A stretch of DNA of 64,000 nt from Elusimicrobiota bacterium (GCA_027451985.1 DAIDHS010000001.1:97932-161931); one strand, 5' to 3'. Shown: positions 749 to 47,543, counted from the stretch's first letter. The notes: generated by a model not told the origin, from the letters alone. A program made the numbers and translations.

Positions 749-1923
749 CGGGCAGCGGGAACTTGCCGAAGTTTTTCCACGGCGCCGGGCAGGGCCTCCG
801 CCAGCCGTCGGACATCTTCGTCGTTCGTGGCGTAACCGAAGGATATCCGCAAAGAGCCTTGCGCCAACTCCGGCTCCATTCCCATCGCGATGAGCACGTG
901 GGAGGGCTGCGGAGAGCCCGTGGAGCAGGCGGGTCCGCTTGAGACGCAAATGCCGGCCAAGTCAAGCGCGATGACCAGTGCGTGGCCGTCGACGCCAGGA
1001 AAACTCAGATGGAGGCAGGTCGAAAGCCTGTTGGCGGGGTGCCCGTTAAGGCGGCAGTCCGGTATTCGGGCGGCGGTTTCCGCGAGCAGCCTGCGAAAAG
1101 ACTCGTAGCGCTGCTGTTTTTTTGCGTCCCCTAAGTCTTTGAGCGCGAGTTCGCACGCGGCGCCCAGTCCAACGATGAAGGGCACGTTTTCGGTTCCGCC
1201 GCGGCGATTTTTTTCCTGGTGGCCCGCGATCAAGGGCGAAAGCCGGACACCTCGCTTTACATAGAGTGCTCCGATTCCCTTGGGCGCTCCGATTTTGTGT
1301 CCGGAAATGGACAGCAGATCGGCCCCCATTTTCTGCACGTCCAGGGGGATTTTCCCGGCGGATTGGACCGCATCGGTATGAAAAAGAATTTCCTTTTCGC
1401 GGCAGAGCGCGGCGATGCCCTCCACGGGCTCGATGGTTCCGACTTCATTGTTGGCATGCATGACGGAAACGACGGCGGTCTCCGGGGTGAGGAGGCCTTC
1501 AAACTGTTCGGGGGCCACATAACCGTATTCATCGGCTTTGGCGAGCGCGCGGTCAAAGCCGCGCATTTTGAGCTGGACCAAAGTCATGCGCACCGCGTCG
1601 TGCTCTATGGGCGTGGATACAACGCGCGGCTTGGTGCGTCCGTAACTCTCCTCCCATTTGGACCAGGCGGCTCCAGAAATGGCCAGGGTGTCCGATTCGG
1701 ACCCCGAGGAAGTGAAGACGATTTCCTGCGGGTCCTTCGCGTTTACAAGCGCCGCGACCTGCTCACGCGCCCGTTCCACGGCCTTGCGCGCCCGCTGGCC
1801 AAGGAAGTATGGGCTACCGGGATTGCCGTAGTGCTCGCGGAAATACGGAAGCATGGCGTCCAGAACTTCCGGACGAATCGGAGTCGTGGCGTTGTAATCG
1901 AGGTAGGTAGCGTCGCGCGTCAT
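745..1923 (-). CDS. iscS: cysteine desulfurase, class V aminotransferase (IscS/NifS type)
   Basis: 392 aa. Contains the PLP-lysine motif SGHKIGAPKGIGALYVKRG and the active-site Cys loop SSGPACSTGSPQPSHVLIAMG. N-terminus MTRDATYLDYNATTPIRPEVLDAM is typical of IscS. Confidence 0.9.
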   Translation of the reverse strand: MTRDATYLDYNATTPIRPEVLDAMLPYFREHYGNPGSPYFLGQRARKAVERAREQVAALVNAKDPQEIVFTSSGSESDTLAISGAAWSKWEESYGRTKPRVVSTPIEHDAVRMTLVQLKMRGFDRALAKADEYGYVAPEQFEGLLTPETAVVSVMHANNEVGTIEPVEGIAALCREKEILFHTDAVQSAGKIPLDVQKMGADLLSISGHKIGAPKGIGALYVKRGVRLSPLIAGHQEKNRRGGTENVPFIVGLGAACELALKDLGDAKKQQRYESFRRLLAETAARIPDCRLNGHPANRLSTCLHLSFPGVDGHALVIALDLAGICVSSGPACSTGSPQPSHVLIAMGMEPELAQGSLRISFGYATNDEDVRRLAEALPGAVEKLRQVPAAR

Positions 1924-2669
1924 GGACCGAAACCGAACCCTTTGAATAGATCCTGATCCCCGCTGTTGCTTTGGTTCTGCGTTGAAGCGGCGGGTTTCGC
2001 GGGCAGCGGGGGGGCGGAGCCGGGCAGTCCGCCCATTTTTGGAGGCAGGCCGCTTAAGGCCGGAGCCACGATGGTTTTTTGGATTCCCTGGACGTAGATG
2101 AGCTGCCCTTTCTTGTAGTCATAGTAGAGGTGGAACTGGGATTCCTTGACCTGCGGCTCATAGGCCTTCCCCAGATTCGTTTTTTCCTGCTGCCAACCGG
2201 GATTGAAGATCAAGCGCCCGCGCACATCCACGATGTCGTTAATGATAGGGAGCACGAAGCGGATGCGGTAGAAGCCGTTGGTGTCGCTGACGCCCGGATC
2301 GAAGGACGTGGTGGCGTTGTTTCCGCTGCCGCCGCCGATGGATTCCCCGAAAAGCTCGTCCTCCGGATTGGTAGTTTCACCGGAGGAGGCGACCGCGCGC
2401 ACGATGACTCCCTGGATGGGACTGCCGGAATAGTCGGTAATCTGTCCTTTAATGTAGCCGTCTAAAAACCTGGTTTTTTGGGGGATGGAGAAAAATAGGA
2501 AGTCGTTTTCGCCGGTGATTTGCTCGGTGATGGACAGGTCGGTGACGCTGCCGTCCGCGAAGTCCTGCACGACGATTTTCTGGTTGGCGGCTCCGCAGGC
2601 GGCCAGCGCGGACAGGCAGGCCAGCGCCGCCCAGAGGCGGACCGTTTTTCGCATGGGATATTTTACCAT
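1920..2669 (-). CDS. hypothetical lipoprotein; signal peptide with LAAC lipobox, possible true start at M6
   Basis: 249 aa. N-terminus MRKTVRLWAALACLSALAACGA has an n-h-c signal with lipobox. No recognisable catalytic motif. 4-nt overlap with iscS and 4-nt gap to motB imply co-transcription with the motor genes. Confidence 0.5.
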   Translation of the reverse strand: MVKYPMRKTVRLWAALACLSALAACGAANQKIVVQDFADGSVTDLSITEQITGENDFLFFSIPQKTRFLDGYIKGQITDYSGSPIQGVIVRAVASSGETTNPEDELFGESIGGGSGNNATTSFDPGVSDTNGFYRIRFVLPIINDIVDVRGRLIFNPGWQQEKTNLGKAYEPQVKESQFHLYYDYKKGQLIYVQGIQKTIVAPALSGLPPKMGGLPGSAPPLPAKPAASTQNQSNSGDQDLFKGFGFGP

Positions 2670-2672
2670 GGG

Positions 2673-3428
2673 CTAGGGGGAGGCCGCCTGGGGAAGTTGA
2701 GCTCCCGCAGGGGTTGCCGCCGGCGCGCCGGACTGGGCGGCGGGAGCCGAAGCTGGGGTCGCGGCCGTATTGGCCGCTTGCGGCGGAACGGGAGGAGGCA
2801 GCGGCGCCGCCTCTCCGCTCTTGACTAGAAAAACGACCCGCCGGTTCATGGCTTTGTGCGCGGGCGTGTCGTTGGGTACGACGGGGCGGTACTGGCCGTA
2901 TCCAATGGCGCCCATGTGCTGGGGAGGAAATCCATATTGGTCGACGAGCAGCCGCAGCACGCTGGTGGCGCGGGAAGTGGAGAGTTCCCAGTTGGAATCG
3001 TAATACTCGTTATGGATGGGCTGGTTGTCCGTATAGCCTTCTACGAGGATGTCGTGGTGGGCGGCCAAGCCCTTAAGCGTTGGGGCGATCTTGGCGAGCA
3101 GGGCCTGCATCTGGGCGGTTGTGTCCGCGGAGCCGCTCTTGAAGAACGCGACTTGGCCCTGCTCGTCCAGAGTGATTTTGAGGCCGTCCTTGTCAATGGA
3201 GACCGAGCCGTGCATCTTGTCCTGCTGCATCATCTTCTTAAGCTTTTGCGCCGCGCCGACGATGTTCTTGTTGAGGGCCGCCGACAGGGCGTAGAGAATG
3301 ATGAAGAAGCACACCAGCTCGGTCATGAGATCGGCGTAGTTGACGAGCCAAGGAGGCGCCGCGTGGCCGATCTGCGAGACGCGCGGGTCGGTCTCCTCGA
3401 TGAATCCGCGGGGGGCCTTGAGCGGCAT
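2673..3428 (-). CDS. motB: MotB-type stator protein with OmpA-like peptidoglycan-binding domain
   Basis: 251 aa. The N-terminal TM carries the conserved channel Asp (WLVNYADLMTELVCFFIILYAL). C-terminal OmpA-like region EGYTDNQPIHNEYYDSNWELSTSRATSVLRLL...NRRVVFLV, followed by a Pro/Ala-rich tail. Confidence 0.8.
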   Translation of the reverse strand: MPLKAPRGFIEETDPRVSQIGHAAPPWLVNYADLMTELVCFFIILYALSAALNKNIVGAAQKLKKMMQQDKMHGSVSIDKDGLKITLDEQGQVAFFKSGSADTTAQMQALLAKIAPTLKGLAAHHDILVEGYTDNQPIHNEYYDSNWELSTSRATSVLRLLVDQYGFPPQHMGAIGYGQYRPVVPNDTPAHKAMNRRVVFLVKSGEAAPLPPPVPPQAANTAATPASAPAAQSGAPAATPAGAQLPQAASP

Positions 3429-4290: not shown

Positions 4291-4521
4291 TCACGGCGAT
4301 TTCCGCTCGAAGCCCTGAATGGGATTGACGACCTTGCCTTGCGCGTTGACCGCTTGCCTATATTCAAGCACTTTTTTCGTGATCTCCTCCGCGCTTTCGC
4401 GCACGAGGTAGCGGTTGCCGGTGGCCAGGCACACGACGGTTTCCTGGCCTATTTCCAGCGCCTCGATGATTTCCGCGTTGATGACCACGGCGGTCCCGTT
4501 GAGCTTGTGCAGCGTGATCAT
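4291..4521 (-). CDS. flbD: flagellar FlbD-like protein; likely true start is M11 of the track ORF
   Basis: The track ORF is 4291..4551. The internal start MITLHKLNGTAVVINAEIIEALEIGQETVVCLATGNRYLVRESAEEITKKV matches the FlbD consensus MIxLTxLNG...FxLNAELIE. Its ATG (4521..4519) overlaps the TGA of the upstream coiled-coil gene. Confidence 0.65.
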   Translation of the reverse strand: MITLHKLNGTAVVINAEIIEALEIGQETVVCLATGNRYLVRESAEEITKKVLEYRQAVNAQGKVVNPIQGFERKSP

Positions 4522-5948
4522 GAAGCGGGGGGATCGGAGGATTGGCGGCATTCCTCAAGTTTGCGGGCCAAGTCCTGGTTTTCCTTGAGCCGGAAAGCGG
4601 CGACATGGCTTTCCTTCGCGAGCTCGCCCCGGAGGGTCTCCAGGGTGATTTCGAGGTTCTTGATTTGGGCCGCTTGAGCGGAGCAGACGCGCTCAAGGCT
4701 CTCTGTTTTTACAGCGAGCTCGTCTTTTTCTCTTTCTGCGCCCGCCAGTCGGCGCTCGAAATCCCTGGCCAGGACCTGTGCAGCATCCAGGGATTCCTGG
4801 CGGGACTTAAGGGCTTTTTGCAGGGTCATTCTTTGCTGTCCAAGCCCGCGCAATGCTTCACGTTCGTGTTCGGCGAGGCGGGAGACATTCTCCAATTTTG
4901 TCTTCAGCGATTGCAACTCCGCCGTTTTCTTGGCCAGATGGGACTTGAGCATCGCCGTCTGGCGCTCCAGAGCCGCGCACACGCCTTTGAATTTCTGCAC
5001 CGCAGCGTAATACTGCTCGGCCGTTTCCCGATATTTGGACACTTCGGCGAGAGCCTCGGCTTTGACGCGCCGGTTCTCGTTCTCGTACTCTTGGCGCGCC
5101 CGGGAGAACTCGCGCTCTAGGCGCTGCTTCAAATCATCCACTTGTGCTTTGGCGGCGGCAAGCTCGAAGCGCATGACCGCCGCTTCCTTATCCTTTTCGG
5201 CCAGGGCCTGCGCTGTCCCTTGCGACTTGGACTGCTCTTCGCGCATGTCCGATAGCCGGCTTTCCAGCCATTTTTTCTCCGCTAGGGCCCGGGAAAGCTC
5301 GGCATCGGCGCCCTTGAGCTTCTCACACAGGGAGCGCAGATTCCTGTTTTCCTCATCTTTGGCCAGCACGACTTTCTGCCACTGGGCCTTTTCCTCCAGG
5401 TTGCGGCGCTCCATTTCCTGAAGACGGGACGCGAAATGGGCTTCGAATTCCTTTTCCTGGAATTCCTTGGACTGCATCTGGTTCTTAAGCGTGGCGACCC
5501 AGGTCTCCCGCTCCTGAGCCATCCTTTTTTCCATTTCCTGAATTTTCGCCTCGAGCTTCAACCGGACTTCCTCTTGCTCCTGGGTCCGGCGCTCCCGGCG
5601 CATGCGCTCCTGCAGATCCTGAAGCGAGGCTTCGACCTTGGCCGCGGTCGCGGATTCCTGCTCGTTTTTTAGGCTGGCGCGGAGAACCTTTTCGCGCTCC
5701 TCCTGGAGGCGCTTCTCGAGTTCGGCGACTTTCTTCTCGTAGTCGTCGCCGTCGCTTCTCGGGGATTGGAGGGCGGCTCCGGCGGGCGCGAAAGTCGCGG
5801 GCGCGGGAGGAGCCCCGAACGAGGGCAGGGGCGGCGGTCCGGAGCGACCCGGATTGGGCGGGAACCCTCCGGGCAGGGGCGGCGCCTGGCGGCCTCCCGG
5901 CAAGGGGGGGGGAATCGGCGGCTTCTTGGAAAACAAATCGTCGGCCAT
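4518..5948 (-). CDS. hypothetical coiled-coil protein with N-terminal polyproline (PPLPGG) repeats
   Basis: 476 aa. N-terminus MADDLFSKKPPIPPPLPGGRQAPPLPGGFPPNPGRSGPPPLPSFGAPPAPA. The remaining ~400 aa are charged heptad-rich sequence (E/K/R/Q/L). AGGAG RBS 8 nt upstream of the ATG. Confidence 0.6.
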   Translation of the reverse strand: MADDLFSKKPPIPPPLPGGRQAPPLPGGFPPNPGRSGPPPLPSFGAPPAPATFAPAGAALQSPRSDGDDYEKKVAELEKRLQEEREKVLRASLKNEQESATAAKVEASLQDLQERMRRERRTQEQEEVRLKLEAKIQEMEKRMAQERETWVATLKNQMQSKEFQEKEFEAHFASRLQEMERRNLEEKAQWQKVVLAKDEENRNLRSLCEKLKGADAELSRALAEKKWLESRLSDMREEQSKSQGTAQALAEKDKEAAVMRFELAAAKAQVDDLKQRLEREFSRARQEYENENRRVKAEALAEVSKYRETAEQYYAAVQKFKGVCAALERQTAMLKSHLAKKTAELQSLKTKLENVSRLAEHEREALRGLGQQRMTLQKALKSRQESLDAAQVLARDFERRLAGAEREKDELAVKTESLERVCSAQAAQIKNLEITLETLRGELAKESHVAAFRLKENQDLARKLEECRQSSDPPAS

Positions 5949-5959
5949 GGAACTTTCTC

Positions 5960-7957
5960 CTATCCTTTAATTTGCGCCTTGAAGCTTTCCACCCACTGCT
6001 GGATTTGCGGATCGGGGTGGGCTTCCAGCATTTTTTCATACTGGGCCAAGGCTTCGGGCGTGCGGCCCAACTGGTATAAAGCTGAGCCGAGGTATTGGCG
6101 GGCTTGCCATAGGTTTGGATCCAGACTTATGGCGTACTCCAAGTAAGGGATGCTTTGGTCGAATTGACCGGCATCATGAAAGGAGACGCCGGCGCTCAGG
6201 TAGTTTTGCGCCTGCGCCGGATCGGCGGGAGGCTGCGCCTCGCTTCCACCCGGCAAAGCTGCGGGCTCGTTTTTGTGCTTGGCGGCGGCAAAGCGCTGTT
6301 GGCGCTTGTTCTGGGCCGAGAGCTCCTCCTGCATGCCTTCGACGAGGTCGTAGCCGCCTGCCTCCTTGTTTCGAACGGCGATTTTGCCCTCTTTTTCAAG
6401 AACCTTGACCGTGTCGATGATTTTCGCCCGCTCTTCCTCGATTTGCGCGGGGGTGATGTTCTGCGAGTACTCCATCGATTCCTTGAGCAGCGCTGCAGCG
6501 CCCGCCGACATGTTGTTAAAGAACTTGTTGAGGACTTCGGGCGGGGCGTTTTGCAAGGCCTTGGCCATGCCCTCGGGCTTGAGCTCGCGGATGATGAGCT
6601 GCATCTCCCGATCGGGGAAATTGGCGGTGTCCTCGAAGACCAGGAGGTGCTTGCGGACATGCTCGTAGACCATGGGTTTTTCATTCTTGAGGTAGTTGAG
6701 AATGTTGTTGCGGGTCGCGGTGTCCGCCTCATCGATCATGGTGATGAGGCGCTCCAAACCGCCCACGACGAAGTCCACGTTCTCCTTCACGTCCGCGTCG
6801 ATGGCGACCACCTGCTCGCGGGTGACTTGGCGGACCGTCAGGGCCTCCATGGCGACGCGGGCCTGGAATTCGACGGGCAAGGACGTCAAAAGCTGGCGCG
6901 CGTAGTCCGGGCGCAGATAGCTGGCCACGACCGCCACTACCCAGGGCTCCTCTTTGCGCAGGAGGAACATGTAGGCCAGGCGCTTGATGTTCTCCTCATT
7001 GATATAAGCGAAAGGCTCGAATTTTTTCATGGACTCATCCTCCTCGGGCGGCGGGGGCGGGGGCTCCGGCGGCTTTCTTTGGAGGGTGATGTCCAGCTTG
7101 CCCTCCTCGGTCAGTTCGTCGTCGCCTTCGCCTTCGTCTTCGTCCGGCTGCTCGATCTTCGATTCGACGTTCACCTCGGCGGCCGGGCGCTCGCGCATCG
7201 CGCGGATGTACTGGCTCATGAAGCGCCAGAGCGGGCCGAAGAGGAACATCAGGAAAAGCAGAATGAGAATGGCGTAGAGAAGCGGCAGGTAAACCCACGG
7301 GTGCTTCAAGTCTTCGCGCCAATCCGTTTTGGCGTGATTGAAAGGCGTGGGCTGGAAAAAAACCTGATTGGGGGCAAGGTTGTACTGGGACATGGCGTCG
7401 ACGATGCGGCTGCGCACCAAATCCTGCTGGGCTTTGTCCTTGAGCACGCTCTGATCGTGGATGACCGTCACGGACATGCGTTTGAAGACCAGGTTCTCGG
7501 AGAAGTCTTCCTGTTGCATCCCTTTTTGCTCCTGGGCCTGCTGGGCGCTGGCTGCCGAAGGAGCCTGCGGAATTTGGGAAATGGTCTCGGGCTGGGGGAT
7601 GCCGGGGAGGACGAACTGGGTCTTGGTCTGCCCGGTTTTTTGCCCGCTGTTTTTTTCCTTGTATTTCTCGGCCAAGCCCATGCCTTTGCGGTTGGTTTCC
7701 TCGTTTTGGACTTTCAGCTGCATGCCCACGTCCACGAAGGCCATGGCCTCGCCCTTGCCGAGAATGGGGTCGAGAATTTCCTGATCGATTTTCTTTTCCG
7801 AGTCCTGTTTGATTCGATTTTGCTCCATCAGAAGGCCCAAATCGGGCGCTTGAATGACTGCGCCAGCGCGCGAAATGGCGGCGAGGACGGCCGCGCAAAG
7901 TAAAAACGCGGCGGCCCAGGCGCGTTGTCGTGGCTTCTGATGCGATTTTGGTGTCAT
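5960..7957 (-). CDS. chimeric membrane protein: FliF/SctJ-type ring-building motif + TM + FliG-like rotor domain + C-terminal TPR
   Basis: 665 aa. Residues ~150-235, KRMSVTVIHDQSVLKDKAQQDLVRSRIVDAMSQYNLAPNQVFFQ, resemble the FliF RBM (xSVTVxL...QxxAVxxLVxxAVxGL...V). A TM segment follows (PLLYAILILLFLMFLFGPLW), then an acidic/Pro-rich linker (PPEPPPPPPEEDE). Residues ~320-530, EENIKRLAYMFLLRKEEPWVVAVVASYLRPDYARQLLTSLPVEFQARV...GGLERLITMIDEADTATRNNILNYL...FNNMSAGAAALLKESMEYSQNITPAQIEEERAKIIDTVKVLEKEGKI, match FliG middle and C-terminal (ARM) domains. Residues 545-665 are TPR-like. Confidence 0.6.
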   Translation of the reverse strand: MTPKSHQKPRQRAWAAAFLLCAAVLAAISRAGAVIQAPDLGLLMEQNRIKQDSEKKIDQEILDPILGKGEAMAFVDVGMQLKVQNEETNRKGMGLAEKYKEKNSGQKTGQTKTQFVLPGIPQPETISQIPQAPSAASAQQAQEQKGMQQEDFSENLVFKRMSVTVIHDQSVLKDKAQQDLVRSRIVDAMSQYNLAPNQVFFQPTPFNHAKTDWREDLKHPWVYLPLLYAILILLFLMFLFGPLWRFMSQYIRAMRERPAAEVNVESKIEQPDEDEGEGDDELTEEGKLDITLQRKPPEPPPPPPEEDESMKKFEPFAYINEENIKRLAYMFLLRKEEPWVVAVVASYLRPDYARQLLTSLPVEFQARVAMEALTVRQVTREQVVAIDADVKENVDFVVGGLERLITMIDEADTATRNNILNYLKNEKPMVYEHVRKHLLVFEDTANFPDREMQLIIRELKPEGMAKALQNAPPEVLNKFFNNMSAGAAALLKESMEYSQNITPAQIEEERAKIIDTVKVLEKEGKIAVRNKEAGGYDLVEGMQEELSAQNKRQQRFAAAKHKNEPAALPGGSEAQPPADPAQAQNYLSAGVSFHDAGQFDQSIPYLEYAISLDPNLWQARQYLGSALYQLGRTPEALAQYEKMLEAHPDPQIQQWVESFKAQIKG

Positions 7958-8004: not shown

Positions 8005-9627
8005 TCAAGGGCCCTGATTGGAGCCCTGGTTTACGCTGCCCAGGAAATTCTTGATCGTTTCGTTGGTTGGATCGATGGCCAGGGCTTTCTGCCACACGGC
8101 CGTGGCCTTGTCCTTTTGGTCCATCATGTAGAAGGCGCTGCCCATGATCTCGAGCGCCGTCACGTTGTTGGGCTCGATGTCCAGAATGTCCTGCGTTCGG
8201 CGCAGAGCCTGATCGTATTTTCCGTTGTACATGGACTGCCGCGCGTCATAAATCTTCTCCTCGACCCAGGTGAGTTGTTCGGGGCCGATGGGCTTGCGGG
8301 TGATGTCCTTGACGCCCGCCTCCTTCTCGACCATGTTGAGAAGGGCCAGGAGCCGATCATCCTTGGAATTCTTGTTGTAAGCGTAGCGCAGATCGTTGAC
8401 CGATTCTTGGAGATCCCGCCCGTCGACATAAGCGGCCACGCCCTTGCGAATGAAGGTCTGGTAGTCCTGTCCGCCCTCGGCCGAAGGGATGTAGGTCGTC
8501 ACGGCCATCAGGCGCGAGAGCATGGCCTCGACCTGCCTATTGCCCGGCTGAACGTCTAGGGCCTGGTTGAAGCGCTGCGAAGCGAGGGTAAAATCTCCTT
8601 CCTGGAAAGCTTGGAAGCCTGCTTTAAGCAAGGCTTGAACTTGTTCGTTGGATTTCTCGCCGCGGGCTTGGCCGAAGCGGAACGTCGCCGAAATGCGGGT
8701 CGTGGTGCCCAGATCGGACGAGAGGCCTTCGCCGAGATCGAGGCCGATGGAGTGAAAATCCAGGCCGAAGCCGAAGTCTGTCTCTTGGAGGCTGGGCAGG
8801 CCGCGCAGTCCGAAACGCGCCGCGAACCAGCGCGTCACCCAGAACTCGCCGCCGAAGCGGGCGTCGAATGCTCCGACGATGGGGCGGTAGACGTCAAAGT
8901 CCATCACCAGTCTGTCGCGAAAGAGGTAGAGGGAATTCCCCAGAATGACGGTGACGGGCAGATGGTCTTGGGTGTCTCCGCTGGTCCTTGAGAACGCGTT
9001 CTGTAGTCCCAGAGCCAAGTGATAGGGCCCCATCAGCTTCAAGGCTCCCAGATTGATGGTCTCGGAGGTGTCGGAGGAGCCGTCCAAGGCGCGAGTGATC
9101 TGCTGGACCGTCGCGCCGAAGGCCATTGACTTGGTGATGTATTTGCCCCAGCCGATGGAGATGGCCCGATCTTGTTCGCTGAAGCTTCCTCCGGTTGTGA
9201 TTTGGGTAGGCTCGCCCGTCGTGGGATCGAAGACGGCGCTGACTTGCTGGAAATTGCTGGAGGTTAATTGCGTGAGGCTCAGATCCAGGGTGCTGCTGCC
9301 CTTGAGCGGCTGCGCGTAGCTCAAGAAATCGAGGTTGGTCTGGTAGAAAAGGGTCGATTCCATGGCGGTGAATTCCTTGCGCTGGATTTGGGCTAGTCCG
9401 GCGGGATTCCAGTTAACCGCTGAGGCGTCGTCCGAGATGCCGTAGTACGCGCCGCCCATGGCTAGGGCGCGCGCGCCGACGCCGTAAGTGAGAAATTCCC
9501 CGGGCTGTCCTCCGGATTGGGCACGTGCGCGCAAGGGAGCGAAGATAAAAAAAACTGCTGCGGGCAAGCCCGCTGCCGCGAAGCGCCGCCGTCTTGGGGG
9601 CATGCCCCAAGGTCTCGTTTTGGCCAT
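8005..9627 (-). CDS. outer-membrane beta-barrel protein (FadL/PorV-like N-terminus) with C-terminal TPR repeats
   Basis: 540 aa. Signal peptide AAGLPAAVFFIFAPLRARAQ, possibly starting at internal M9. The motif YGVGARALAMGGAYYGISDDASAVNWNPAGL is typical of FadL/OMPP1/PorV-type barrels. Alternating beta-strand-like sequence runs to ~aa 330. The C-terminal 200 aa are TPR-like (ALLKAGFQAFQEGDFTLASQRFNQALDVQPGN...). Confidence 0.55.
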   Translation of the reverse strand: MAKTRPWGMPPRRRRFAAAGLPAAVFFIFAPLRARAQSGGQPGEFLTYGVGARALAMGGAYYGISDDASAVNWNPAGLAQIQRKEFTAMESTLFYQTNLDFLSYAQPLKGSSTLDLSLTQLTSSNFQQVSAVFDPTTGEPTQITTGGSFSEQDRAISIGWGKYITKSMAFGATVQQITRALDGSSDTSETINLGALKLMGPYHLALGLQNAFSRTSGDTQDHLPVTVILGNSLYLFRDRLVMDFDVYRPIVGAFDARFGGEFWVTRWFAARFGLRGLPSLQETDFGFGLDFHSIGLDLGEGLSSDLGTTTRISATFRFGQARGEKSNEQVQALLKAGFQAFQEGDFTLASQRFNQALDVQPGNRQVEAMLSRLMAVTTYIPSAEGGQDYQTFIRKGVAAYVDGRDLQESVNDLRYAYNKNSKDDRLLALLNMVEKEAGVKDITRKPIGPEQLTWVEEKIYDARQSMYNGKYDQALRRTQDILDIEPNNVTALEIMGSAFYMMDQKDKATAVWQKALAIDPTNETIKNFLGSVNQGSNQGP

Positions 9628-9795
9628 TATATCTTCGGCAACCAGACGCTCCCCCAGGGAGTCGTGGCTTTGCGCCCCTGCCTTGCGGCAGGTTTGCCTT
9701 TATCGCCTAACCCGCCCTGAACGTCCGCCGCGGCCTTGATCGCAACCCCTCGATCGTAACGGCGGAAACTGGCCGGATTAGGATGCAACATGGCA

Positions 9796-9823
9796 AGTAT
9801 AACAGAAAGACTTGACTTGTCAA
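9796..9823 (-). promoter_or_regulatory. sigma70-like promoter TTGACA-N16-TATACT reading toward the OM-barrel/motor gene string
   Basis: Minus-strand reading ttgacaagtcaagtctttctgttatact. It lies inside a near-palindrome cttgacttgtcaag, ~160 nt upstream of the 9627 start codon. Confidence 0.5.
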
Positions 9824-9896
9824 GGGGGTTGGGCGTTTTTCTTCTATGGTTCATGCGGGTCCGAGTTAAAATAAAGTTAAAAGTAGCTTTTGGATA

Positions 9897-9954: not shown

Positions 9955-11583
9955 ATGAAAAAACGCCTTTGGAAGCCGCCCCAGCCGTCGGATACTTCCG
10001 CGGCCGTCGATATCCCTGAGCTTAAGGAAAAGGAAAAAAAGAAGAAAGGGGCGCCCTTTTGGATGGGCGCCGGGCAGTCCACCGAGGCCATCTACGGCTC
10101 TCTGGAGAGCATTCCCGGCGTGGAGGCCTCGCAGGCGGCGGCCAGTGCCGCTGTTCGCGCGGCGGCTTCGGCGCTTGAGGCTGACACAATGGGGGAGGCC
10201 GTTTCAGCCGTCGCCGGGGCCTCCTCGGACGCGGCTGGCGGATTTCTTGCCCGATTCGCAGATTCCTTGGTTTCTTACTGGCCTGAAAGTTTAATCGGCA
10301 AGGTGGCTGCCGCAGGAATGCTGCTTATTACGGCGGGGGCGCTGACCAGCGGCGCCGCCTTGTTCGCAAAAGCCGCCGCCACTGGTGTCCCTATGGCGGG
10401 GTTGGGTGGCATCGTCAGCTCCCTTCATTATATGAAGCCGCCGTCCAAGAGTCTCCTGTACGCGGCGGCAGCGGCTCGGAATATGCCATCGGCGGCCCAG
10501 AGCGGCGTTGCGAAGGCGGAAGATGCCATCGCGGCCGGAGGATTTACCGGGCAGGTTGCGCCGGGAGCGCCCGTGGGACAAAAAGGCAATCTTCAGGGCC
10601 CGCCGACGCTTGGCGGATCCCCTTGGGGCAGGCAGAATTCTTTCGACGGTTCAGCGGCCGGAGAAGGCTCTCTCTCAGGTGCTGCGCCTCCAAGCGCAGG
10701 CGGAAAAAATGGAAAACTGAGCGGCGCTTTTCAGCAGAGCGTCGATGGCAAGGGCGTCGGCGGCGCTCTCAAGGTCGCGGCCAACACGGGGAGCCCATTT
10801 GCGAGGCTAGGCCGCTTCGGCAGTGGATCGAGCCAATCCCTGGGGCTTTTACGCAGCATGAAAACCTATATCCCGGGCATGACCAGCGGCAACTCGAACC
10901 CCGGCGAAATTCCCGCCCAGTTGGCTGCGGAGCAGTTCGATCATTCGAATTTGATCGGGGCGAGCGCTCCATCCGCTCCTTCCATCGGCAACGGCACGCC
11001 GGACCTGCTGACTTCGCCCAACGCAGGAGGCGGCAGCGGCGGCGGTTCGGGTGGGAGCAATAACTCCTGCGCACAGGACGGCATGGTCTGGAACGGCAGC
11101 GGCTGCACGGCTCCGAGCGCGCCGCCGGGGCAGAACTCATCGCCATGGCAGTCGGCGATGAGTTCTGCGAACATGCTTCTGCCTATTGCGGCCGGACTGA
11201 TGATTATGGCGGCGATTTTGACTAATATCCCGTTTGGATGGGGGAAGCCTGCCGCGTACGTGCTTGCCATCTTGGCCGCCGTGCTGGGAGGCGTCGTTCT
11301 TCTGCAGGGAACAGGCATGATTGGGGGCGGCCAGAAAACCGGCGGTGGGACGCTGGTGACCGCTGGCATACTGACCGTGGCCGGTGCCTGGGCCGCCTTC
11401 GGCGGCAGCTTTAGCGCCGGGCCGGAACTCTTACCCACCGTTATCGGTGCGATCGCCGGGGTCATGTCCTCGATGATGCAATCCTTTACCCCGCCACCAC
11501 CACCGCAGACACCGCCCACGAACGGATCCGGATCGTCGGGGAGCGGCTCCTCCTCCGGAACCTCGAACGGAACCGGCGGCTAA
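9955..11583 (+). CDS. hypothetical Gly/Ala/Ser-rich membrane protein; C-terminal TM helices
   Basis: 542 aa. Low-complexity G/A/S-rich body. C-terminal hydrophobic helices (MLLPIAAGLMIMAAILTNIPFGWGKPAAYVLAILAAVLGGVVLL; LVTAGILTVAGAWAAF), followed by a PPPPQTPP tail. A TTGACA-N17-TAAACT promoter lies 30 nt upstream. Confidence 0.5.
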   Translation: MKKRLWKPPQPSDTSAAVDIPELKEKEKKKKGAPFWMGAGQSTEAIYGSLESIPGVEASQAAASAAVRAAASALEADTMGEAVSAVAGASSDAAGGFLARFADSLVSYWPESLIGKVAAAGMLLITAGALTSGAALFAKAAATGVPMAGLGGIVSSLHYMKPPSKSLLYAAAAARNMPSAAQSGVAKAEDAIAAGGFTGQVAPGAPVGQKGNLQGPPTLGGSPWGRQNSFDGSAAGEGSLSGAAPPSAGGKNGKLSGAFQQSVDGKGVGGALKVAANTGSPFARLGRFGSGSSQSLGLLRSMKTYIPGMTSGNSNPGEIPAQLAAEQFDHSNLIGASAPSAPSIGNGTPDLLTSPNAGGGSGGGSGGSNNSCAQDGMVWNGSGCTAPSAPPGQNSSPWQSAMSSANMLLPIAAGLMIMAAILTNIPFGWGKPAAYVLAILAAVLGGVVLLQGTGMIGGGQKTGGGTLVTAGILTVAGAWAAFGGSFSAGPELLPTVIGAIAGVMSSMMQSFTPPPPPQTPPTNGSGSSGSGSSSGTSNGTGG

Positions 11584-11667
11584 AATTCCCGCGACGATCA
11601 ATCTTGCGAGAGCATTTCCGGTGTCCACCCCCCAAAATTGAAATTTGGTAAAAAAAGACGGTTTCTC

Positions 11668-11696
11668 TTGACAATGCCTCGGGGCCGCATTAAACT
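11668..11696 (+). promoter_or_regulatory. sigma70-like promoter TTGACA-N17-TAAACT (same hexamers as the promoter at 9897)
   Basis: ttgacaatgcctcggggccgcattaaact, 16 nt upstream of the ATG at 11712. Confidence 0.5.
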
Positions 11697-11711
11697 ACTA
11701 CCAGCATTGAT

Positions 11712-12803
11712 ATGAACTCCAAAACGCCGTTCTTCAAAGGCCGGAGTTCCGGCGGCATTTCCTCCGCTTTTCGCAAGAAAGAGACGATTGCGGCCGCGGG
11801 TATTTTTGCGGCGGCGGCCCTGGTTGCGGCTTTCCTTTTAAGCGGAAAGGAATTTTCGGTTCCCCGGATTTTTTCCGGTTCCGTCGCGGCCGCTCCGAAC
11901 GCGAATCTTCCAGTAAGCGCCCAGGCGCGCGGCGTTCCGCAGTTGCCGCAGGCTGCGTCGCCGGCCAATCCAGAGTCCCTGGCCTTGGGCGGTTATTACC
12001 CGGGAGACGCGGTCGTGCGCCGTTGGCGCGGCGATTTGGGGGGCGAAACGGTGACGGGCTTTATCGATCCCAAGCAGGCTGGCCGGCGGCGGCCATTGGT
12101 TCCTTTACCTCTTCCGGCCGCGTCGGGCCCTTCGGCCGTGGCGCCGGACTCGGTGGCCGAGGCAGTGAGCGGAACCAGCGTCCCACGTGCGTCGCGGGCT
12201 GCCGTTAAAAGGAGGCTTCGTGGCCAGGGATTCCGCCGCTACAGGATGCATCATATCGCGCTCTGCAGCGGCGCCGAGTGCGCTCTCCGAAGATTATCCG
12301 ACATCCGGATTTTGACCGCCGATCACTCTCCGTGTCTCGCGGTAAAGGGCTGCGTCGCTGAAAACGCGGTCGCCGATGAGAATGCGGTGTATGACGGTTC
12401 ATCCGCCGCGCCGAGCGCCGGGCCTTCCGCCTTGAATCAGTCGGCGCCCAAAATCAGTCCGGCCGCGCAGGCCGGCTTGGGCGGGCAAAGCGACGCGGCC
12501 GCCGCGGCGCAGGCGCAGCGCCTTTCGGAGGACGCCAAGCGTTGCGCCGCCGCAAATACGCTGTACTTCGGGACGCCGGAAAAGCCGGGCCCGCAGGTTC
12601 TAGCGCGGCAGGATTTATCCTTGGCATATAAAAACCTGGAGAGTTCCGGATGCCTTTCCGCGAACGGCGCTCTTTGCGCCGCGTCGCGCGAGAAAGCGGG
12701 CGAACTTTGCCGGCAATTCGACGCGGTGCGGCTGGCCCATTACGAGGCGTGCCCCATCGATCAGCGGCTGGGGCCCTACGAACCCGCGCAGTGCGTGCTT
12801 TAG
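11712..12803 (+). CDS. hypothetical membrane-anchored Cys-rich protein
   Basis: 363 aa. N-terminal TM (IAAAGIFAAAALVAAFLL). C-terminal half holds multiple Cys (ALCSGAECALRRL...HSPCLAVKGCVAEN...CAAANTLYF...SSGCLSANGALCAAS...CRQFD...YEACPIDQ...AQCVL), consistent with an extracytoplasmic disulfide-rich domain. An identical TTGACA-N17-TAAACT promoter lies upstream. Confidence 0.5.
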   Translation: MNSKTPFFKGRSSGGISSAFRKKETIAAAGIFAAAALVAAFLLSGKEFSVPRIFSGSVAAAPNANLPVSAQARGVPQLPQAASPANPESLALGGYYPGDAVVRRWRGDLGGETVTGFIDPKQAGRRRPLVPLPLPAASGPSAVAPDSVAEAVSGTSVPRASRAAVKRRLRGQGFRRYRMHHIALCSGAECALRRLSDIRILTADHSPCLAVKGCVAENAVADENAVYDGSSAAPSAGPSALNQSAPKISPAAQAGLGGQSDAAAAAQAQRLSEDAKRCAAANTLYFGTPEKPGPQVLARQDLSLAYKNLESSGCLSANGALCAASREKAGELCRQFDAVRLAHYEACPIDQRLGPYEPAQCVL

Positions 12804-12812
12804 GAGAATATT

Positions 12813-15398
12813 ATGGCCGATGAAAATTCGAATTTGAACAAGAACGGGGACAAGAAGGACGACAAGAAAGACGCCCTTCCTCCCACGCTCAAGGACTTCC
12901 AGAAAACCCGCATCAAATTGCAGGGCTCGGGTCCGCGCACGCTTCTAGAACGCATGAAGTCGTTCCGCAAAAAAGATTTGATGTTCATCCTTTCGGGTTT
13001 GGGGGTCCTGGTGGCGGCGCCTTTGGCCGAGCATTTGATGATGGGCTCGCAGCCCAACAGCGGCTTTCATCAGGGTTGGGATTTTAAGAACGGTTTGGGC
13101 GGCTTTGGCGGCGGCGGTTCGCCCTACGAGCCCGGCATCAACGGCTTGGCTCCGGGCCAGGCCGCCGGCGGCAACGGCGACATCATCACGCCCTTCAACG
13201 CCCGCGATCCCGCATCGCTCATTTTGAGCCCAGACGCTTCGGCCCAGCCGCCCGTGGGCTCCTCGAACGCGCCTTCATCCGACAGTGGCGGCCAGGACAA
13301 CGGCCAAGCGCCGTGGAAGAACGTGCTGGCCCAGGCCGGCGGCAACGCCGCGAACGCGGCGAGCCAAAGCGCCGGCCTGCCCACCGCGCCTCCCGCCTTG
13401 GGCGACGGCATTTTCAGCGCGCACGGTCCCGCGAACAGCACTTCGGCCTCTTACACGCCGCCCCCGATTTCGGCGGCCAACGTTCCCAATAGGGCGGCGG
13501 GCAACGACTCTTTGTCGCAGGTGCACGGCAACGGCGTCAGCGGCGCCTCGCCTTACGGCTTGACCAACGGCGGTTCCGCGGAGGGCTTGAAGAGCGCGGC
13601 CAACCAAGCCGGCGCTTATTTCAACCGGCCGACCTCGGCCGCGGGAAATTTGGAGAAGGCCGCCGCCGTCAACACGCCGACCGGCGGTTCGGGCAGCGCG
13701 GGCTCCGGCATGGGCGGGTCCCAGCAAGATAAGAATTCCGGCCAGGACTCGAACAAGAACAGCAAGTCCGCCGGAGAATCGCTGGCGGAGAAAGCCGCCG
13801 AGCAGAACCAGCAGCACGCCATCGATTTGTATTGGAAGAAGCTTGAAGAGCAGCAGATGGCGCCCATTAAGCTGCAGGAAGATATTCAGAAGACCATCGT
13901 CGAGACTCCGATTAAGGCCATCATGGATGAGGTCGGCAAGCAAATGGCTGCTGAGGTTAAGAAACAGTTTGCGGGCGCAGATACCGAATATACATGTACC
14001 AACGTCCCGGCTGAAATCGCAAAACAGATTCCGAACGGAATCTTCTATAACTGTGGTACTTCTGAAGCGAATAGTTTTTATTGCGTAAGCACTGATGACA
14101 ATTCGACGCTTATTGAACAAGATCCTACAGGTGCTGAAAAAGGTGGACCAAGCAGTAAGCCTACAGGCGCTACTTGCTCTGCATTGCCTTCTAAGGCTCC
14201 GCCTGATGGTGGTGGCGGACCTAACGGCGCTGGCAGCGGCCAGGCGGTCAACTTGATTGGAAACAAGAGCGCGGAAGCTGTCGATGCGGGCGCCTCGGCC
14301 ATCCTGGTTAATTTGGACAAGCTTTGCAACGCGGCTTCGGCTAATGAACAGGCGGTTCATCATATGTTTTCCGGCAACACAAGCATGCCGTTCGCTCATG
14401 ACGCAGGGAAAATCTATAATTCTACTTCAAAGACCGGTCCTGCGCATGATGTCGCCAAGGCTGTATATGAGCTGAGCGGAGACGCCTCCGAGGCCTGCGG
14501 TGTCAGTGGCGATGGTCATGACACGGCCATGGGACAAATTGGCGCTGCCAATACGAGCCTGAAGGCGGCTCGGTTTGACTTCCAGAGGGTTGCGGATAAT
14601 GATGGCGCAGCTTCGGATATCGCCGTCAAAATATTGTGTGGAGATTCCCAATCCTGCCAGCTTTCTCAAGTGGCAAAAGATGCCGCAGCCGGGAATGCCC
14701 AGGCAGTTCAGAATTATTGGAAGCCTATCCCGCAGCAGCTTCAACAAAACACTAAAAATGTGGATGGCAGCCTGACACAGGCCCAGGCTGCTCTGAAAAA
14801 AGGAGAGAAGGATATGGAAGCCGCAAACGCGGCCTTATCTAAAGCCGATAAAAAGATTGCGGACAATACAAACAATGGACCAGCTGCCGCTGAACAGATA
14901 AGCACCCTTATTAATGGAGATGGGGCCGGTTCCCCGTTTGCCAATTTTAAAGGAACGGTAGATAAGATTCAATCCAGTTACCCGCAATTGGTCGCGGCAG
15001 CTCAGAATCAGTCGGCCTCCTATCATGCTTTTGCCCAAACATACGCCCAACTACAGCCACCAGCACAAGCGGTTGTGAACGAAACTCAGCAGTCGTTGAC
15101 TCAACCGGCGCCTAATCCGCCGGCAGATCTTTCGTTAATAATGAAAAATCAATATTCTTTTGTTACACTCATGAATACAGATACTGCAACAAACGTGATA
15201 TCTAAGACGTTGAAATCTATAAGTAATTTTTGTCAAGAAGAATGGAACACCCAGGAAACTGTTGCTAAGGCGGAGTCGAATTTTGCGACTCAAGTGGCTA
15301 AGGCTCCTTTGGCGCCTGCACAAGGCGGCCAGAACGCGACTCCTAGCGCGAGCGATGCCCTGACTCGTCTTGGTGGGGCGTCCGCGTCAGCGCAATAA
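12813..15398 (+). CDS. hypothetical large membrane-anchored low-complexity surface protein
   Basis: 861 aa. AGGAG RBS. Single TM near the N-terminus (LMFILSGLGVLVAAPLA). Long G/A/S/N/Q-rich extracytoplasmic region with scattered Cys. The 3' ~1.5 kb of the gene has clearly lower GC than the rest of the window. Confidence 0.55.
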   Translation: MADENSNLNKNGDKKDDKKDALPPTLKDFQKTRIKLQGSGPRTLLERMKSFRKKDLMFILSGLGVLVAAPLAEHLMMGSQPNSGFHQGWDFKNGLGGFGGGGSPYEPGINGLAPGQAAGGNGDIITPFNARDPASLILSPDASAQPPVGSSNAPSSDSGGQDNGQAPWKNVLAQAGGNAANAASQSAGLPTAPPALGDGIFSAHGPANSTSASYTPPPISAANVPNRAAGNDSLSQVHGNGVSGASPYGLTNGGSAEGLKSAANQAGAYFNRPTSAAGNLEKAAAVNTPTGGSGSAGSGMGGSQQDKNSGQDSNKNSKSAGESLAEKAAEQNQQHAIDLYWKKLEEQQMAPIKLQEDIQKTIVETPIKAIMDEVGKQMAAEVKKQFAGADTEYTCTNVPAEIAKQIPNGIFYNCGTSEANSFYCVSTDDNSTLIEQDPTGAEKGGPSSKPTGATCSALPSKAPPDGGGGPNGAGSGQAVNLIGNKSAEAVDAGASAILVNLDKLCNAASANEQAVHHMFSGNTSMPFAHDAGKIYNSTSKTGPAHDVAKAVYELSGDASEACGVSGDGHDTAMGQIGAANTSLKAARFDFQRVADNDGAASDIAVKILCGDSQSCQLSQVAKDAAAGNAQAVQNYWKPIPQQLQQNTKNVDGSLTQAQAALKKGEKDMEAANAALSKADKKIADNTNNGPAAAEQISTLINGDGAGSPFANFKGTVDKIQSSYPQLVAAAQNQSASYHAFAQTYAQLQPPAQAVVNETQQSLTQPAPNPPADLSLIMKNQYSFVTLMNTDTATNVISKTLKSISNFCQEEWNTQETVAKAESNFATQVAKAPLAPAQGGQNATPSASDALTRLGGASASAQ

Positions 15399-15481
15399 TG
15401 TTTTTATTTCCAGGTTGCCGCCTTTTGCGCGGAGAGTCTCTTGGTGTGTGGACAAAAAACGGAACTCCTGCTATTCTTTTT

Positions 15482-15533
15482 GGGCCTAAAGTCCTATTGA
15501 CAGCTAGGCCCTTTGGGTCTGGCGAAATAGGAC
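15482..15533 (+). promoter_or_regulatory. nested inverted repeats (GGGCCTA/TAGGCCC and GTCCTATT/AATAGGAC) enclosing a TTGACA hexamer, upstream of the secreted-protein gene
   Basis: gggcctaaagtcctattgacagctaggccctttgggtctggcgaaataggac. The 8-mer arm is shared with the hairpin at 18278. Confidence 0.4.
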
Positions 15534-15554
15534 CGATGGGTTTACAACAGTAAT

Positions 15555-45272: not shown

Positions 45273-45273
45273 A

Positions 45274-47082: not shown

Positions 47083-47543
47083 TTGACGATTTTGAGCGAG
47101 GTCCGGCGTCCGTCGGTTTCCTCACTCCTGACGTTGTTGGGATCCATCATGGGCTTCCCATCGACCAGAAAGAGATAGTGATACCGGCCGGCAGGAAGTG
47201 CCAAGCTAGCCTCCCACCAGCCGTGGGCTTTGAGATTCAAGATGAAGGTCCCGCCTTTCCAAGCATTGAACTCTCCAATGACCGCCACGGATTTGGCCTT
47301 GGGCGCGTGCAACCGGAAGGTTACGAACTTGATTTTTGGCAGTCGCCGCCCCCCCTTGGAGCGGCGGGTCTCATCGTGGCGGAAGGTGGAGGGGGCTGTC
47401 TGGTGCAATGTCGCCGGTTCGAGACCGCTTAAGAACTTTCTGTAGCCAAGGACGGATTTGAGAAGGAAGGTGGAGGGCACCACGAGGAGAGCAAAGCCCA
47501 AAATGAGGCTCCCCCAAAAAAACCATTTGCCCCGGTCCGTCAT
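47079..47543 (-). CDS. membrane-anchored CBM48 (glycogen-binding, AMPK-beta/isoamylase-N-like) domain protein
   Basis: 154 aa. N-terminal TM WFFWGSLILGFALLVVP. Domain VTFRLHAPKAKSVAVIGEFNAWKGGTFILNLKAHGWWEASLALPAGRYHYLFLVDGKPMMDPNN matches the CBM48/E-set glycogen-binding fold signature (VxFxx..A..V.V.G.FN.W......M.....G.W...L.L..G.Y.YKF.VDG.W..DP.N). Confidence 0.6.
   Translation of the reverse strand: MTDRGKWFFWGSLILGFALLVVPSTFLLKSVLGYRKFLSGLEPATLHQTAPSTFRHDETRRSKGGRRLPKIKFVTFRLHAPKAKSVAVIGEFNAWKGGTFILNLKAHGWWEASLALPAGRYHYLFLVDGKPMMDPNNVRSEETDGRRTSLKIVK

Follow-up and report, generated by a model that had tools for sequence, protein, structure and literature searches.

The 64,000-nt stretch of DNA from an Elusimicrobiota bacterium analysed here (the window; feature coordinates are counted along the whole of it) carries at 5960–7957, on the minus strand, the gene of a single 665-residue protein whose sequence joins homologues of the third ring-building motif (RBM3) of FliF and of the middle and C-terminal domains of FliG (FliG_MC), followed by tetratricopeptide repeats (TPR). 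Genes recognisable as those of a flagellar-type stator and of FlbD lie in the same conserved operon. We read the protein, with a probability of roughly 0.7, as a one-polypeptide flagellar-type rotor ring that is driven by MotAB and is not part of a flagellum. Among sequences whose record titles name a taxon, the family is restricted to Elusimicrobiota.

Architecture of the fusion protein

ORF calling gives at 5960–7957 exactly one ATG-started open reading frame (ORF) of 665 codons on the minus strand, and the plus-strand reading of the interval is riddled with stops; a plus-strand ORF at 6155–7903 was rejected as a shadow of the fusion gene in this 59% G+C DNA. The identical single-ORF architecture, 608–686 residues long, recurs in 80 independent genome loci and in at least 120 database clusters among the matches listed, of which those with a named source all belong to Elusimicrobiota. 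Since the same ORF is found across independent assemblies, the fusion is not an assembly artefact.

The FliG half matches Pfam FliG_M (PF14841) at residues 332–391 (E-value 7.9e-10) and FliG_C (PF01706) at residues 423–527 (4.1e-24), both above cut-off. Against PDB sequences, residues 314–538 align with Thermotoga maritima FliG_MC (3AJC, 1LKV, 4FHR) at E-values of 1e-29 to 1e-32 and more weakly with the FliG of Aquifex, Helicobacter, Salmonella and Vibrio. The fliG model TIGR00207 places residues 316–530 on its positions 112–330 of 338, with 100.8 bits against a cut-off of 226.7, and from this coverage only the MC part of FliG is present. No separate match to FliG_N (PF14842) was found, the sole one (E-value 0.0022) overlapping the FliG_M region at 341–389. 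When 77 family members are aligned to T. maritima FliG, the Gly-Gly hinge (G399 and G400) is invariant, while EHPQR, the motif that binds FliM, has decayed to (E/D)(E/D)PW..E, with Trp339 invariant and the position of the Arg occupied by Glu in 76 of the 77.

No Pfam family matches the first 310 residues of the window protein. Homology to FliF emerged only from a fold search, from Pfam scans of individual relatives and from hhalign, and for the window protein it is carried by its family. An AlphaFold2 model of residues 1–262, built on 23 relatives (mean pLDDT 73.8; the two predicted structures in this analysis, with pLDDT 74 and 79, are monomers), places a helix, two long strands, a second helix and a further strand at the positions given in Table 1, followed by a transmembrane (TM) helix at 220–256. 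The modelled fold is the alpha-beta-beta-alpha-beta fold of an RBM with an insertion between beta1 and beta2, an arrangement shared by FliF RBM3 (with its beta-collar) and SpoIIIAG. In Foldseek, every one of the top 18 matches (E-values 2e-7 to 3e-3) is an entry for the FliF MS-ring or for RBM3/collar. Scanned singly, 17 of 23 relatives match PF08345 (YscJ_FliF_C), and two of five that were re-examined exceed its gathering score, over profile positions 1–147 and 1–143 of 147. Run against 1.84 billion representative proteins, a profile gave only 147 matches; among them are shorter relatives that lack the TPR and match PF08345 strongly (6.6e-12), and also a bona fide FliF (P0254), matched at its RBM3 region (231–436). 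Compared by hhalign with this FliF, the family gives a probability of 90.1% and an E-value of 1.6e-6, residues 35–245 falling on FliF 231–438 with TM2 included.

PF01514 (YscJ_FliF, RBM1–RBM2) is unmatched in the window protein, in the 23 relatives and in the TPR-less relatives, and the true FliF P0254, used as a control, matches it at 1.2e-43. The RBM3/beta-collar of FliF builds the S-ring of the flagellar MS-ring, and the RBM modules of FliF RBM3 and SpoIIIAG build rings of 30–34 subunits alone; RBM1 and RBM2 of FliF house the export gate, so a fusion that has neither offers no housing for a type III export gate. Column conservation in the collar insert (0.67) and in TM2 (0.80, with many invariant residues) is as high as in folded domains. 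A collar that is conserved yet unmodelled in a monomer, together with an unusually conserved TM2, fits oligomeric packing. The least conserved region is residues 1–36 (0.28), where a helix is predicted at 11–28, and the hydrophobic stretch may be either a signal peptide or a first TM anchor. The linker at 257–309 is acidic, proline-rich and moderately conserved (0.53). Canonical FliF has a flexible segment of roughly the same length between TM2 and its FliG-binding helices, so the fusion deletes only the non-covalent joint between FliF and FliG_N.

At the other end of the protein, several TPR families of Pfam match residues 579–653 (E-values about 1e-8), and consensus-TPR entries of PDB match as well. 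The domain is probably cytoplasmic, because the sequence that separates the FliG domains from the TPR contains no TM helix.

Much of an earlier note on this DNA, made from the sequence alone, holds up. It had proposed a single 665-residue protein, without giving the minus strand, and the ORF is intact; the TM helix that it placed after the RBM is predicted at 220–256; FliG middle and C-terminal domains, which it put at ~320–530, are recovered by Pfam and by T. maritima FliG_MC, its motifs NNMS..AA..L.E.ME and K.LEKEGKI being, respectively, the torque helix of FliG_C and the final helix of that domain. That only one RBM is kept agrees with the contrast between PF01514, unmatched, and PF08345, matched in the family. 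The RBM proposed at ~150–235 has the right fold but not the right extent, which is about 37–208 with a collar-type insert; the stretch quoted (about 159–202) is its beta2-alpha2-beta3 part. Likewise the TPR said to span 545–665 is present but starts near 579. The suspected kinship with FliF and FliG was borne out by Foldseek, hhalign, Pfam and PDB FliG sequences, and other RBM–FliG–TPR proteins do exist, as a conserved fusion with 120 listed clusters and syntenic neighbours. A frameshift that would split the gene in two, which the note considered, is contradicted by the recurring single ORF in independent assemblies.

The operon and its stator

The fusion gene is the second of seven minus-strand genes that overlap or are separated by gaps of 3–48 nt, in the order barrel-TPR protein, fusion, polyproline/coiled-coil protein, FlbD/SwrD, MotA, MotB and lipoprotein. 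A one-genome-per-species scan gave 117 relatives; the best 80 of these loci were taken, and all come from Elusimicrobiota or from metagenome-assembled genomes classified no further than 'bacterium'. The gene order is the same in essentially every locus long enough to hold the cassette, in about 80 species-level genomes, with identities of 42–98%. Among the carriers are the complete or near-complete genomes CP096137.1 and CBDIQC010000001.1 and, at about 43–46% identity, metagenome-assembled genomes of Elusimicrobiales and Elusimicrobiaceae. A tblastn survey of 83 loci, searched with the window's own proteins only, found the barrel-TPR protein in 80, the coiled-coil protein in 77, FlbD in 71, MotA in 69, MotB in 67 and the lipoprotein in 59, the loci without the lipoprotein being mostly cut off by contig ends. 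Between the window and one relative (L005), the ratio of nonsynonymous to synonymous substitution rates (dN/dS) is 0.016–0.104 for all seven genes, and the cassette is under strong purifying selection. Apart from these, no flagellar gene was found in the window (64 kb), nor, for the loci with called genes that were inspected, in flanks of ~20 kb.

Among PDB sequences, MotA matches Clostridium sporogenes MotA (8.5e-49), PomA (3e-44) and also Bacillus MotA, and in NCBIfam the MotP, PomA and MotA models at 1e-60 to 1e-63, below their equivalog cut-offs. Because these flagellar structures and models are its nearest, we assign the protein by sequence to the flagellar, torque-generating type. It has four TM helices, the channel prolines (P156, invariant, and P204, aligned with PomA P199) and the charged pair; MotB has the plug, the channel Asp and the OmpA-like domain. 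Of the charged pair, K91 is found in 67/67 sequences, all of which have K or R at position 92; the pair corresponds to PomA R88/K89 and E. coli R90.

FliG_C is the surface on which MotA acts, and in the 77 aligned members the acidic face of its torque helix is kept (K492; E493 in 77/77; position 496 with E in 69/77 and D in 8/77; Y497). MotA thus keeps a positive patch opposite the acidic helix of FliG_C, and the two proteins have each largely lost their half of a second salt bridge. The retained patches are compatible with a working but simplified MotA–FliG_C interface, though they are no proof of it. The idea that the reciprocal loss of MotA E98 and FliG R281 proves co-evolution was weakened, as Glu is still found in 11/67 MotA sequences while G486 of the fusion is near-invariant, and a conserved Asp101 stands nearby, two residues past MotA position 99. 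Direct coupling to MotA, proposed in the earlier note, is strengthened by the operon with MotA, MotB and FlbD, but the FliG charges that contact MotA are mostly lost: one of the five classical torque-helix charges (E. coli K264, R281, D288, D289 and R297) is kept, the equivalent of D288, E493.

The FlbD protein can be placed in the SwrD family. Its relatives have 76 residues, and a start at Met11 (ATG at 4521) gives an ATGA overlap with the upstream stop, which suggests translational coupling of flbD with the upstream gene. In Bacillus, SwrD raises flagellar motor power and forms hexameric rings, and its binding to MotA is predicted, not shown (PMC13232269).

As to the remaining members, the coiled-coil protein has an SMC-like coiled-coil match only. 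In the lipoprotein the lipobox Cys is invariant, a weak transthyretin-like/CarboxypepD_reg signal is seen in 24/24 members, and a near-invariant C-terminus, DDLFKGFGFGQ, stands behind a Pro-rich tail. Short peptides are typical TPR ligands. The tail of the lipoprotein and the periplasmic TPR of the barrel protein could plausibly dock with each other, and the N-terminus of the coiled-coil protein might do the same with the cytoplasmic TPR of the rotor. The coiled-coil protein of the window starts with MADDLF followed by PPPLP repeats, and this start, like the DDLFKGFGFGQ of the lipoprotein, could be a short docking peptide for one of the two TPR domains.

The proposed machine and its rivals

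From these parts we infer ring assembly, rotation, partners and output as follows. Like FliF RBM3 and SpoIIIAG, the fusion would form a ring, built of many copies in the inner membrane, with the FliG_C torque helices displayed as a crown on the cytoplasmic side. MotA5B2-like stators, which the OmpA-like domain of MotB would tether to peptidoglycan and FlbD/SwrD would assist, would use the flow of protons (or Na+) to push this crown and so turn the ring. With a covalent TM–linker–FliG_MC connection, the non-covalent joint between the FliF C-terminus and FliG_N would not be needed. The cytoplasmic TPR and the polyproline/coiled-coil protein may replace the FliM/FliN part of the C-ring as a stabiliser or regulator, and switching of the CheY type is not expected, since the FliM-binding motif is missing. 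The loss of RBM1/2 and of that motif in a phylum reported to be flagellum-less argues that the motor is not part of a flagellum.

For the output, our leading guess is that the collar insert, the barrel-TPR protein and the lipoprotein would pass the work to the outer membrane and couple the ring to a process there or at the cell surface. Ranked second is a barrel-TPR protein that serves as a stator scaffold only, with the output elsewhere, and third a cytoplasmic output through the pair of TPR and coiled-coil protein. The full picture of a filament-less rotary machine, in which a one-protein ring spun by MotAB delivers work to the cell surface (moving or releasing surface proteins, or gliding), is tentative, and we regard it as possible rather than probable.

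It should be noted that a number of observations weigh against such a rotor. Four of the torque-helix charges are lost: K264 is replaced by Q/A/S, R281 by Gly (G486) in 75/77, D289 by S/I and R297 by T/S. At the position of PomA E96 and E. coli E98 (Q99 here), MotA has Gln in 56/67 and Glu in 11/67 sequences. With four of five FliG charges gone and the E98 equivalent mostly Gln, the interface is remodelled and its function cannot be assumed. On the side of FliF, the window protein itself falls below the PF08345 threshold, a family profile of the N-terminal alignment has no match among PDB sequences even at an E-value of 10, and residues 92–149 are unmodelled in the AlphaFold2 monomer. One locus of a TPR-less relative (L091) has no adjacent motAB and holds two response-regulator-GAF genes instead. 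We identified no cargo or output component, and the flagellum-less state of the lineage is taken from one preprint.

Part of this would also suit an account in which the ring is a fixed docking platform and the rotation of MotA5B2 against FliG_C serves only for gating or activation of the stator, with the useful work reaching the PorV/FadL-like barrel by periplasmic contacts in the manner of Ton and Tol, for energised uptake or outer-membrane maintenance. The first gene of the operon does encode a FadL/PorV-type barrel with a periplasmic TPR, and periplasmic TPR proteins (PflA/PflB, FlcA and MotX) scaffold the stators of several flagellar motors; the barrel-TPR protein has a weak, insignificant match to FlcA_CTERM (E-value 0.009). 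Like the cassette protein, PflA/PflB, FlcA and MotX/MotY are TPR-rich periplasmic proteins encoded with, or acting on, stators of the MotB type, but here the TPR forms one protein with an outer-membrane barrel, and no flagellum is present. The largely lost torque-helix charges and the long flexible linker between the TM helix and FliG_M point the same way, although the linker after TM2 of canonical FliF is comparably long. However, the stator is of the flagellar, torque-generating type and not of the ExbB/TolQ type, and the FliG_M–Gly-Gly–FliG_C layout and the RBM3 ring module are kept and strongly conserved. Tol-Pal with CpoB has, like the cassette, a motor of the MotAB family, a lipoprotein, an OmpA-like protein that binds peptidoglycan, and partners with TPR and coiled coils; in contrast, the stator of the cassette is flagellar, the TPR of the fusion is cytoplasmic and there is no TolA or TolB. 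Moreover, Elusimicrobia carry a separate Tol-Pal/CpoB system of their own (PMC12204202). A static platform of this sort is therefore, in our view, unlikely.

Comparison with the flagellar core bears on whether the rotor belongs to a conventional flagellum. The two share the RBM3/beta-collar module, TM2 and a flexible linker, the FliG middle and C-terminal armadillo (ARM) domains with the Gly-Gly hinge and torque helix, and a co-encoded flbD-motA-motB of flagellar (PomA/MotP-like) type. In contrast to the flagellar core, the fusion is without RBM1 and RBM2 and without the FliF C-terminal helices and FliG_N, which a covalent link replaces; EHPQR is degraded, 4/5 torque-helix charges are replaced, a C-terminal TPR is added, and near the gene there are no FliM/N, rod, hook or filament genes, in a host phylum reported as non-flagellated. 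Engineered and natural FliF–FliG fusions are also among its known forms (PDB 8Z4D, for example). That every recognisable part (FliF, FliG, MotA, MotB, FlbD) is flagellar would suit an accessory or alternative rotor part of a flagellum encoded elsewhere in the genome. We consider this improbable, given that RBM1/2, FliG_N and the EHPQR motif are absent, that no further flagellar gene lies in the window or the flanks inspected, and that free-living Elusimicrobiota with these genes are reported without flagellar structural genes (10.1101/2022.07.08.499144).

A decaying flagellar relic, or an assembly or frameshift artefact joining two genes, would agree with a lineage reported as non-flagellated and with degraded FliG motifs but is very improbable in view of the low dN/dS of all seven genes, the strict synteny at such divergence in about 80 genomes, the same single ORF in at least 120 listed clusters and independent assemblies, and residues invariant in this family in particular, such as W339 and G486. 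Hardly more credible is a Zorya-type anti-phage system, with a MotAB-like motor sensing envelope perturbation: MotB does match ZorB models of PADLOC (best E-value 2.9e-21), but these ZorB/MotB matches are generic, MotA has no ZorA match and, at 266 residues, no long ZorA tail, there are no ZorC/D-like genes, the other six cassette proteins have no PADLOC match, and the cassette keeps a fixed place among housekeeping genes across the phylum instead of lying in variable islands.

Other ring and motor systems resemble the proposed rotor in part. The RBM ring proteins of injectisomes (SctJ/PrgK/EscJ) and of the sporulation channel (SpoIIIAG) are without FliG domains and are not driven by MotAB, and both sequence and structure matches of the fusion favour FliF RBM3 over them. 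The GldLM/PorLM motor of Bacteroidota gliding and the system for type IX secretion (T9SS) is likewise a proton-driven inner-membrane motor of the 5:2 type with a genetic tie to a barrel of the PorV family, and loci of TPR-less relatives have CHU_C proteins and PorP/SprF-like paralogues within 10 kb. However, GldL and GldM are not orthologues of MotA/MotB of the flagellar clade, and the T9SS is without a FliG/FliF-like rotor. We found no T9SS core genes or C-terminal sorting domains in the window, where only the PorV-like barrel is present.

Related loci, neighbouring genes and what the cassette would mean

Table 1. Positions of the fusion protein's parts, the other cassette genes and a promoter candidate in the window, and of the TPR-less fusions in their own loci
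Feature	Position	Strand	Evidence
Whole gene, FliF(RBM3)-TM-FliG(MC)-TPR fusion, 665 aa	5960..7957	-	ORF, domain evidence, at least 120 homologues of like length
Residues 1-36, basic N-terminus and hydrophobic stretch, signal peptide or first TM anchor	7850..7957	-	predicted helix 11-28
Residues 37-208, periplasmic FliF RBM3-like domain	7334..7849	-	alpha1 40-66, beta1 71-87, collar-type insert 92-149, beta2 150-167, alpha2 175-192, beta3 199-205
Residues 220-256, TM helix equivalent to FliF TM2, basic residues after it	7190..7300	-	pLDDT >90, conservation 0.80, hhalign
Residues 257-309, acidic/polyproline cytoplasmic linker replacing the FliF C-terminus/FliG_N module	7031..7189	-	sequence, conservation 0.53
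Residues 310-400, helix_NM and FliG middle (ARM) domain, ending in Gly-Gly hinge G399 G400	6758..7030	-	Pfam FliG_M
Residues 401-530, FliG C-terminal domain with torque helix NMSAGAAALLKESMEY	6368..6757	-	Pfam FliG_C, PDB FliG matches
Residues 579-665, C-terminal TPR, about 2-3 repeats, probably cytoplasmic	5963..6223	-	TPR Pfam families, consensus-TPR PDB matches
Barrel-TPR protein, 540 aa: PorV/FadL-like outer-membrane beta-barrel (about 84-318), C-terminal periplasmic TPR-like domain (322-536)	8005..9627	-	
Coiled-coil protein, 476 aa (425-947 aa in relatives): acidic N-terminus, PPPLP repeats, long coiled coil	4518..5948	-	sequence, family termini
FlbD/SwrD-family protein, 76 aa from likely start Met11 of 86-aa ORF (4291-4551)	4291..4521	-	Pfam FlbD E 4.8e-19, starting at residue 11
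Flagellar-type MotA/PomA stator A subunit, 266 aa	3442..4242	-	Pfam MotA_ExbB, NCBIfam, PDB
MotB: plug, TM helix with channel Asp D33 in YADLMT, OmpA-like peptidoglycan-binding domain	2673..3428	-	Pfam MotB_plug 1.3e-11, OmpA 1.6e-15
Lipoprotein, 249 aa, last conserved gene: lipobox Cys25, beta-sandwich-like domain, Pro-rich tail, C-terminal DDLFKGFGFGQ	1920..2669	-	alignment
Sigma-70-like promoter candidate, TTGACA-16-TATACT with TG	9796..9823	-	11/12 consensus matches; consensus match only
TPR-less fusion loci	L084 10001-13630; L085 9127-13128; L090 10001-14261; L091 4421-5977		

The TPR-less fusions found in the representative search have 492–572 residues (PF08345, FliG_M and FliG_C), and the named ones come from Elusimicrobiota. 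Their loci run from a barrel-TPR orthologue or a Tricorn/PD40/fn3 protein through the fusion and MotA to two successive MotB genes, and are without FlbD, the coiled-coil protein and the lipoprotein; across these few loci, the TPR of the rotor co-occurs with the genes of those three. A CHU_C-domain protein lies no more than 10 kb upstream in 3/4 of them (L084 2115–5717, L085 171–5401 and L090 1331–5146), CHU_C being the family of T9SS type-B sorting domains. It is followed in L084 and L085 by a paralogue of the barrel-TPR protein, that of L085 with a weak PorP/SprF signal, and in L090 by a 499-aa gene without family match, a candidate paralogue. This pairing resembles a T9SS cargo with its PorP/SprF partner, outside Bacteroidota; it is a lead and not a result, because synteny links two of the three loci.

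Related to the N-terminal half of the fusion (E-values 1e-12 to 1e-7) are also stand-alone secreted proteins of ~180 aa with a signal peptide and an RBM3-like domain (P0170, P0181, P0186, P0197 and P0213, in loci L086–L089). Some have in their insert an F(E/R)GFG motif that recalls the LFKGFGFG of the lipoprotein. No motor genes were found near them, and one adjoins a SAF-domain protein.

Around the cassette, the class-V aminotransferase gene downstream appears to be a housekeeping gene, as does that of MnmA in relatives. On the upstream side, a 75-aa ORF at 9627–9854 (minus strand) is probably no gene, being present in only 3/83 loci and overlapped by the promoter-like site at 9823–9796. Four ORFs without family matches (9955–18173) precede two consecutive giant plus-strand ORFs, at 18354–25736 (2460 aa) and 25825–41658 (5277 aa), and accompany the cassette only in L005. 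In the first giant ORF the only match is a weak one, to a helicase-type motif (ResIII/type I restriction R-subunit) at residues 1646–1740; the second has no NCBIfam match at all. That the divergent genes and the giant ORFs are cargo of the cassette was rejected, as they have no family or T9SS-domain match and stand with the cassette only in L005, the closest relative. Further on, 41695–47543 encodes a dCache-HAMP-PAS histidine kinase followed by LysM/glucodextranase-B-like, glucodextranase-C (SLH-like) and CBM48 proteins, which resembles a cell-surface/glycan cluster and shows no obvious connection with the motor cassette.

Free-living Elusimicrobiota have been described as having no flagellar structural genes yet carrying motAB, flbD and fliG, whose role was called unclear and for which gliding or twitching was speculated (10.1101/2022.07.08.499144). 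Databases label members of the present family 'FliG C-terminal domain-containing protein' or 'tetratricopeptide repeat protein'. In the literature searched, neither the FliF-RBM3 part nor the architecture of the fusion was found described, and the same holds for the operon of seven genes, its PorV-like partner and the variants without TPR. The novelty that the earlier note had claimed for the architecture therefore stands for the FliF part and the operon, but not for the presence of a fliG-type gene, which databases and one preprint already record.

To our knowledge, flagella are the only known setting of FliG and of flagellar-type MotAB, and we know of no FliG-like rotor in the other 5:2 ion-driven motors (Tol, Ton, GldLM, AglRQS, Zorya). 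The parts described here are recognisable by sequence as known flagellar modules in a new arrangement. If rotation and a non-flagellar output were shown, this would be a new kind of machine; if true, FliG and a flagellar-type stator would for the first time be seen in use outside the flagellum, and nature would have provided a minimal rotor. An operon that is conserved and keeps only the ring-forming, torque-receiving and stator modules would show that the rotor–stator core can stand alone, and a rotor of one polypeptide, with no FliM/FliN, export gate or rod, would be useful for structural and single-molecule studies of torque. The finding also bears on the origin or the dismantling of the flagellar motor, in particular on the question which of its parts can do without a type III export apparatus. 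Finally, it offers a concrete candidate for the function of the unexplained motAB, flbD and fliG of Elusimicrobiota, including the magnetotactic ones, and possibly for their motility.

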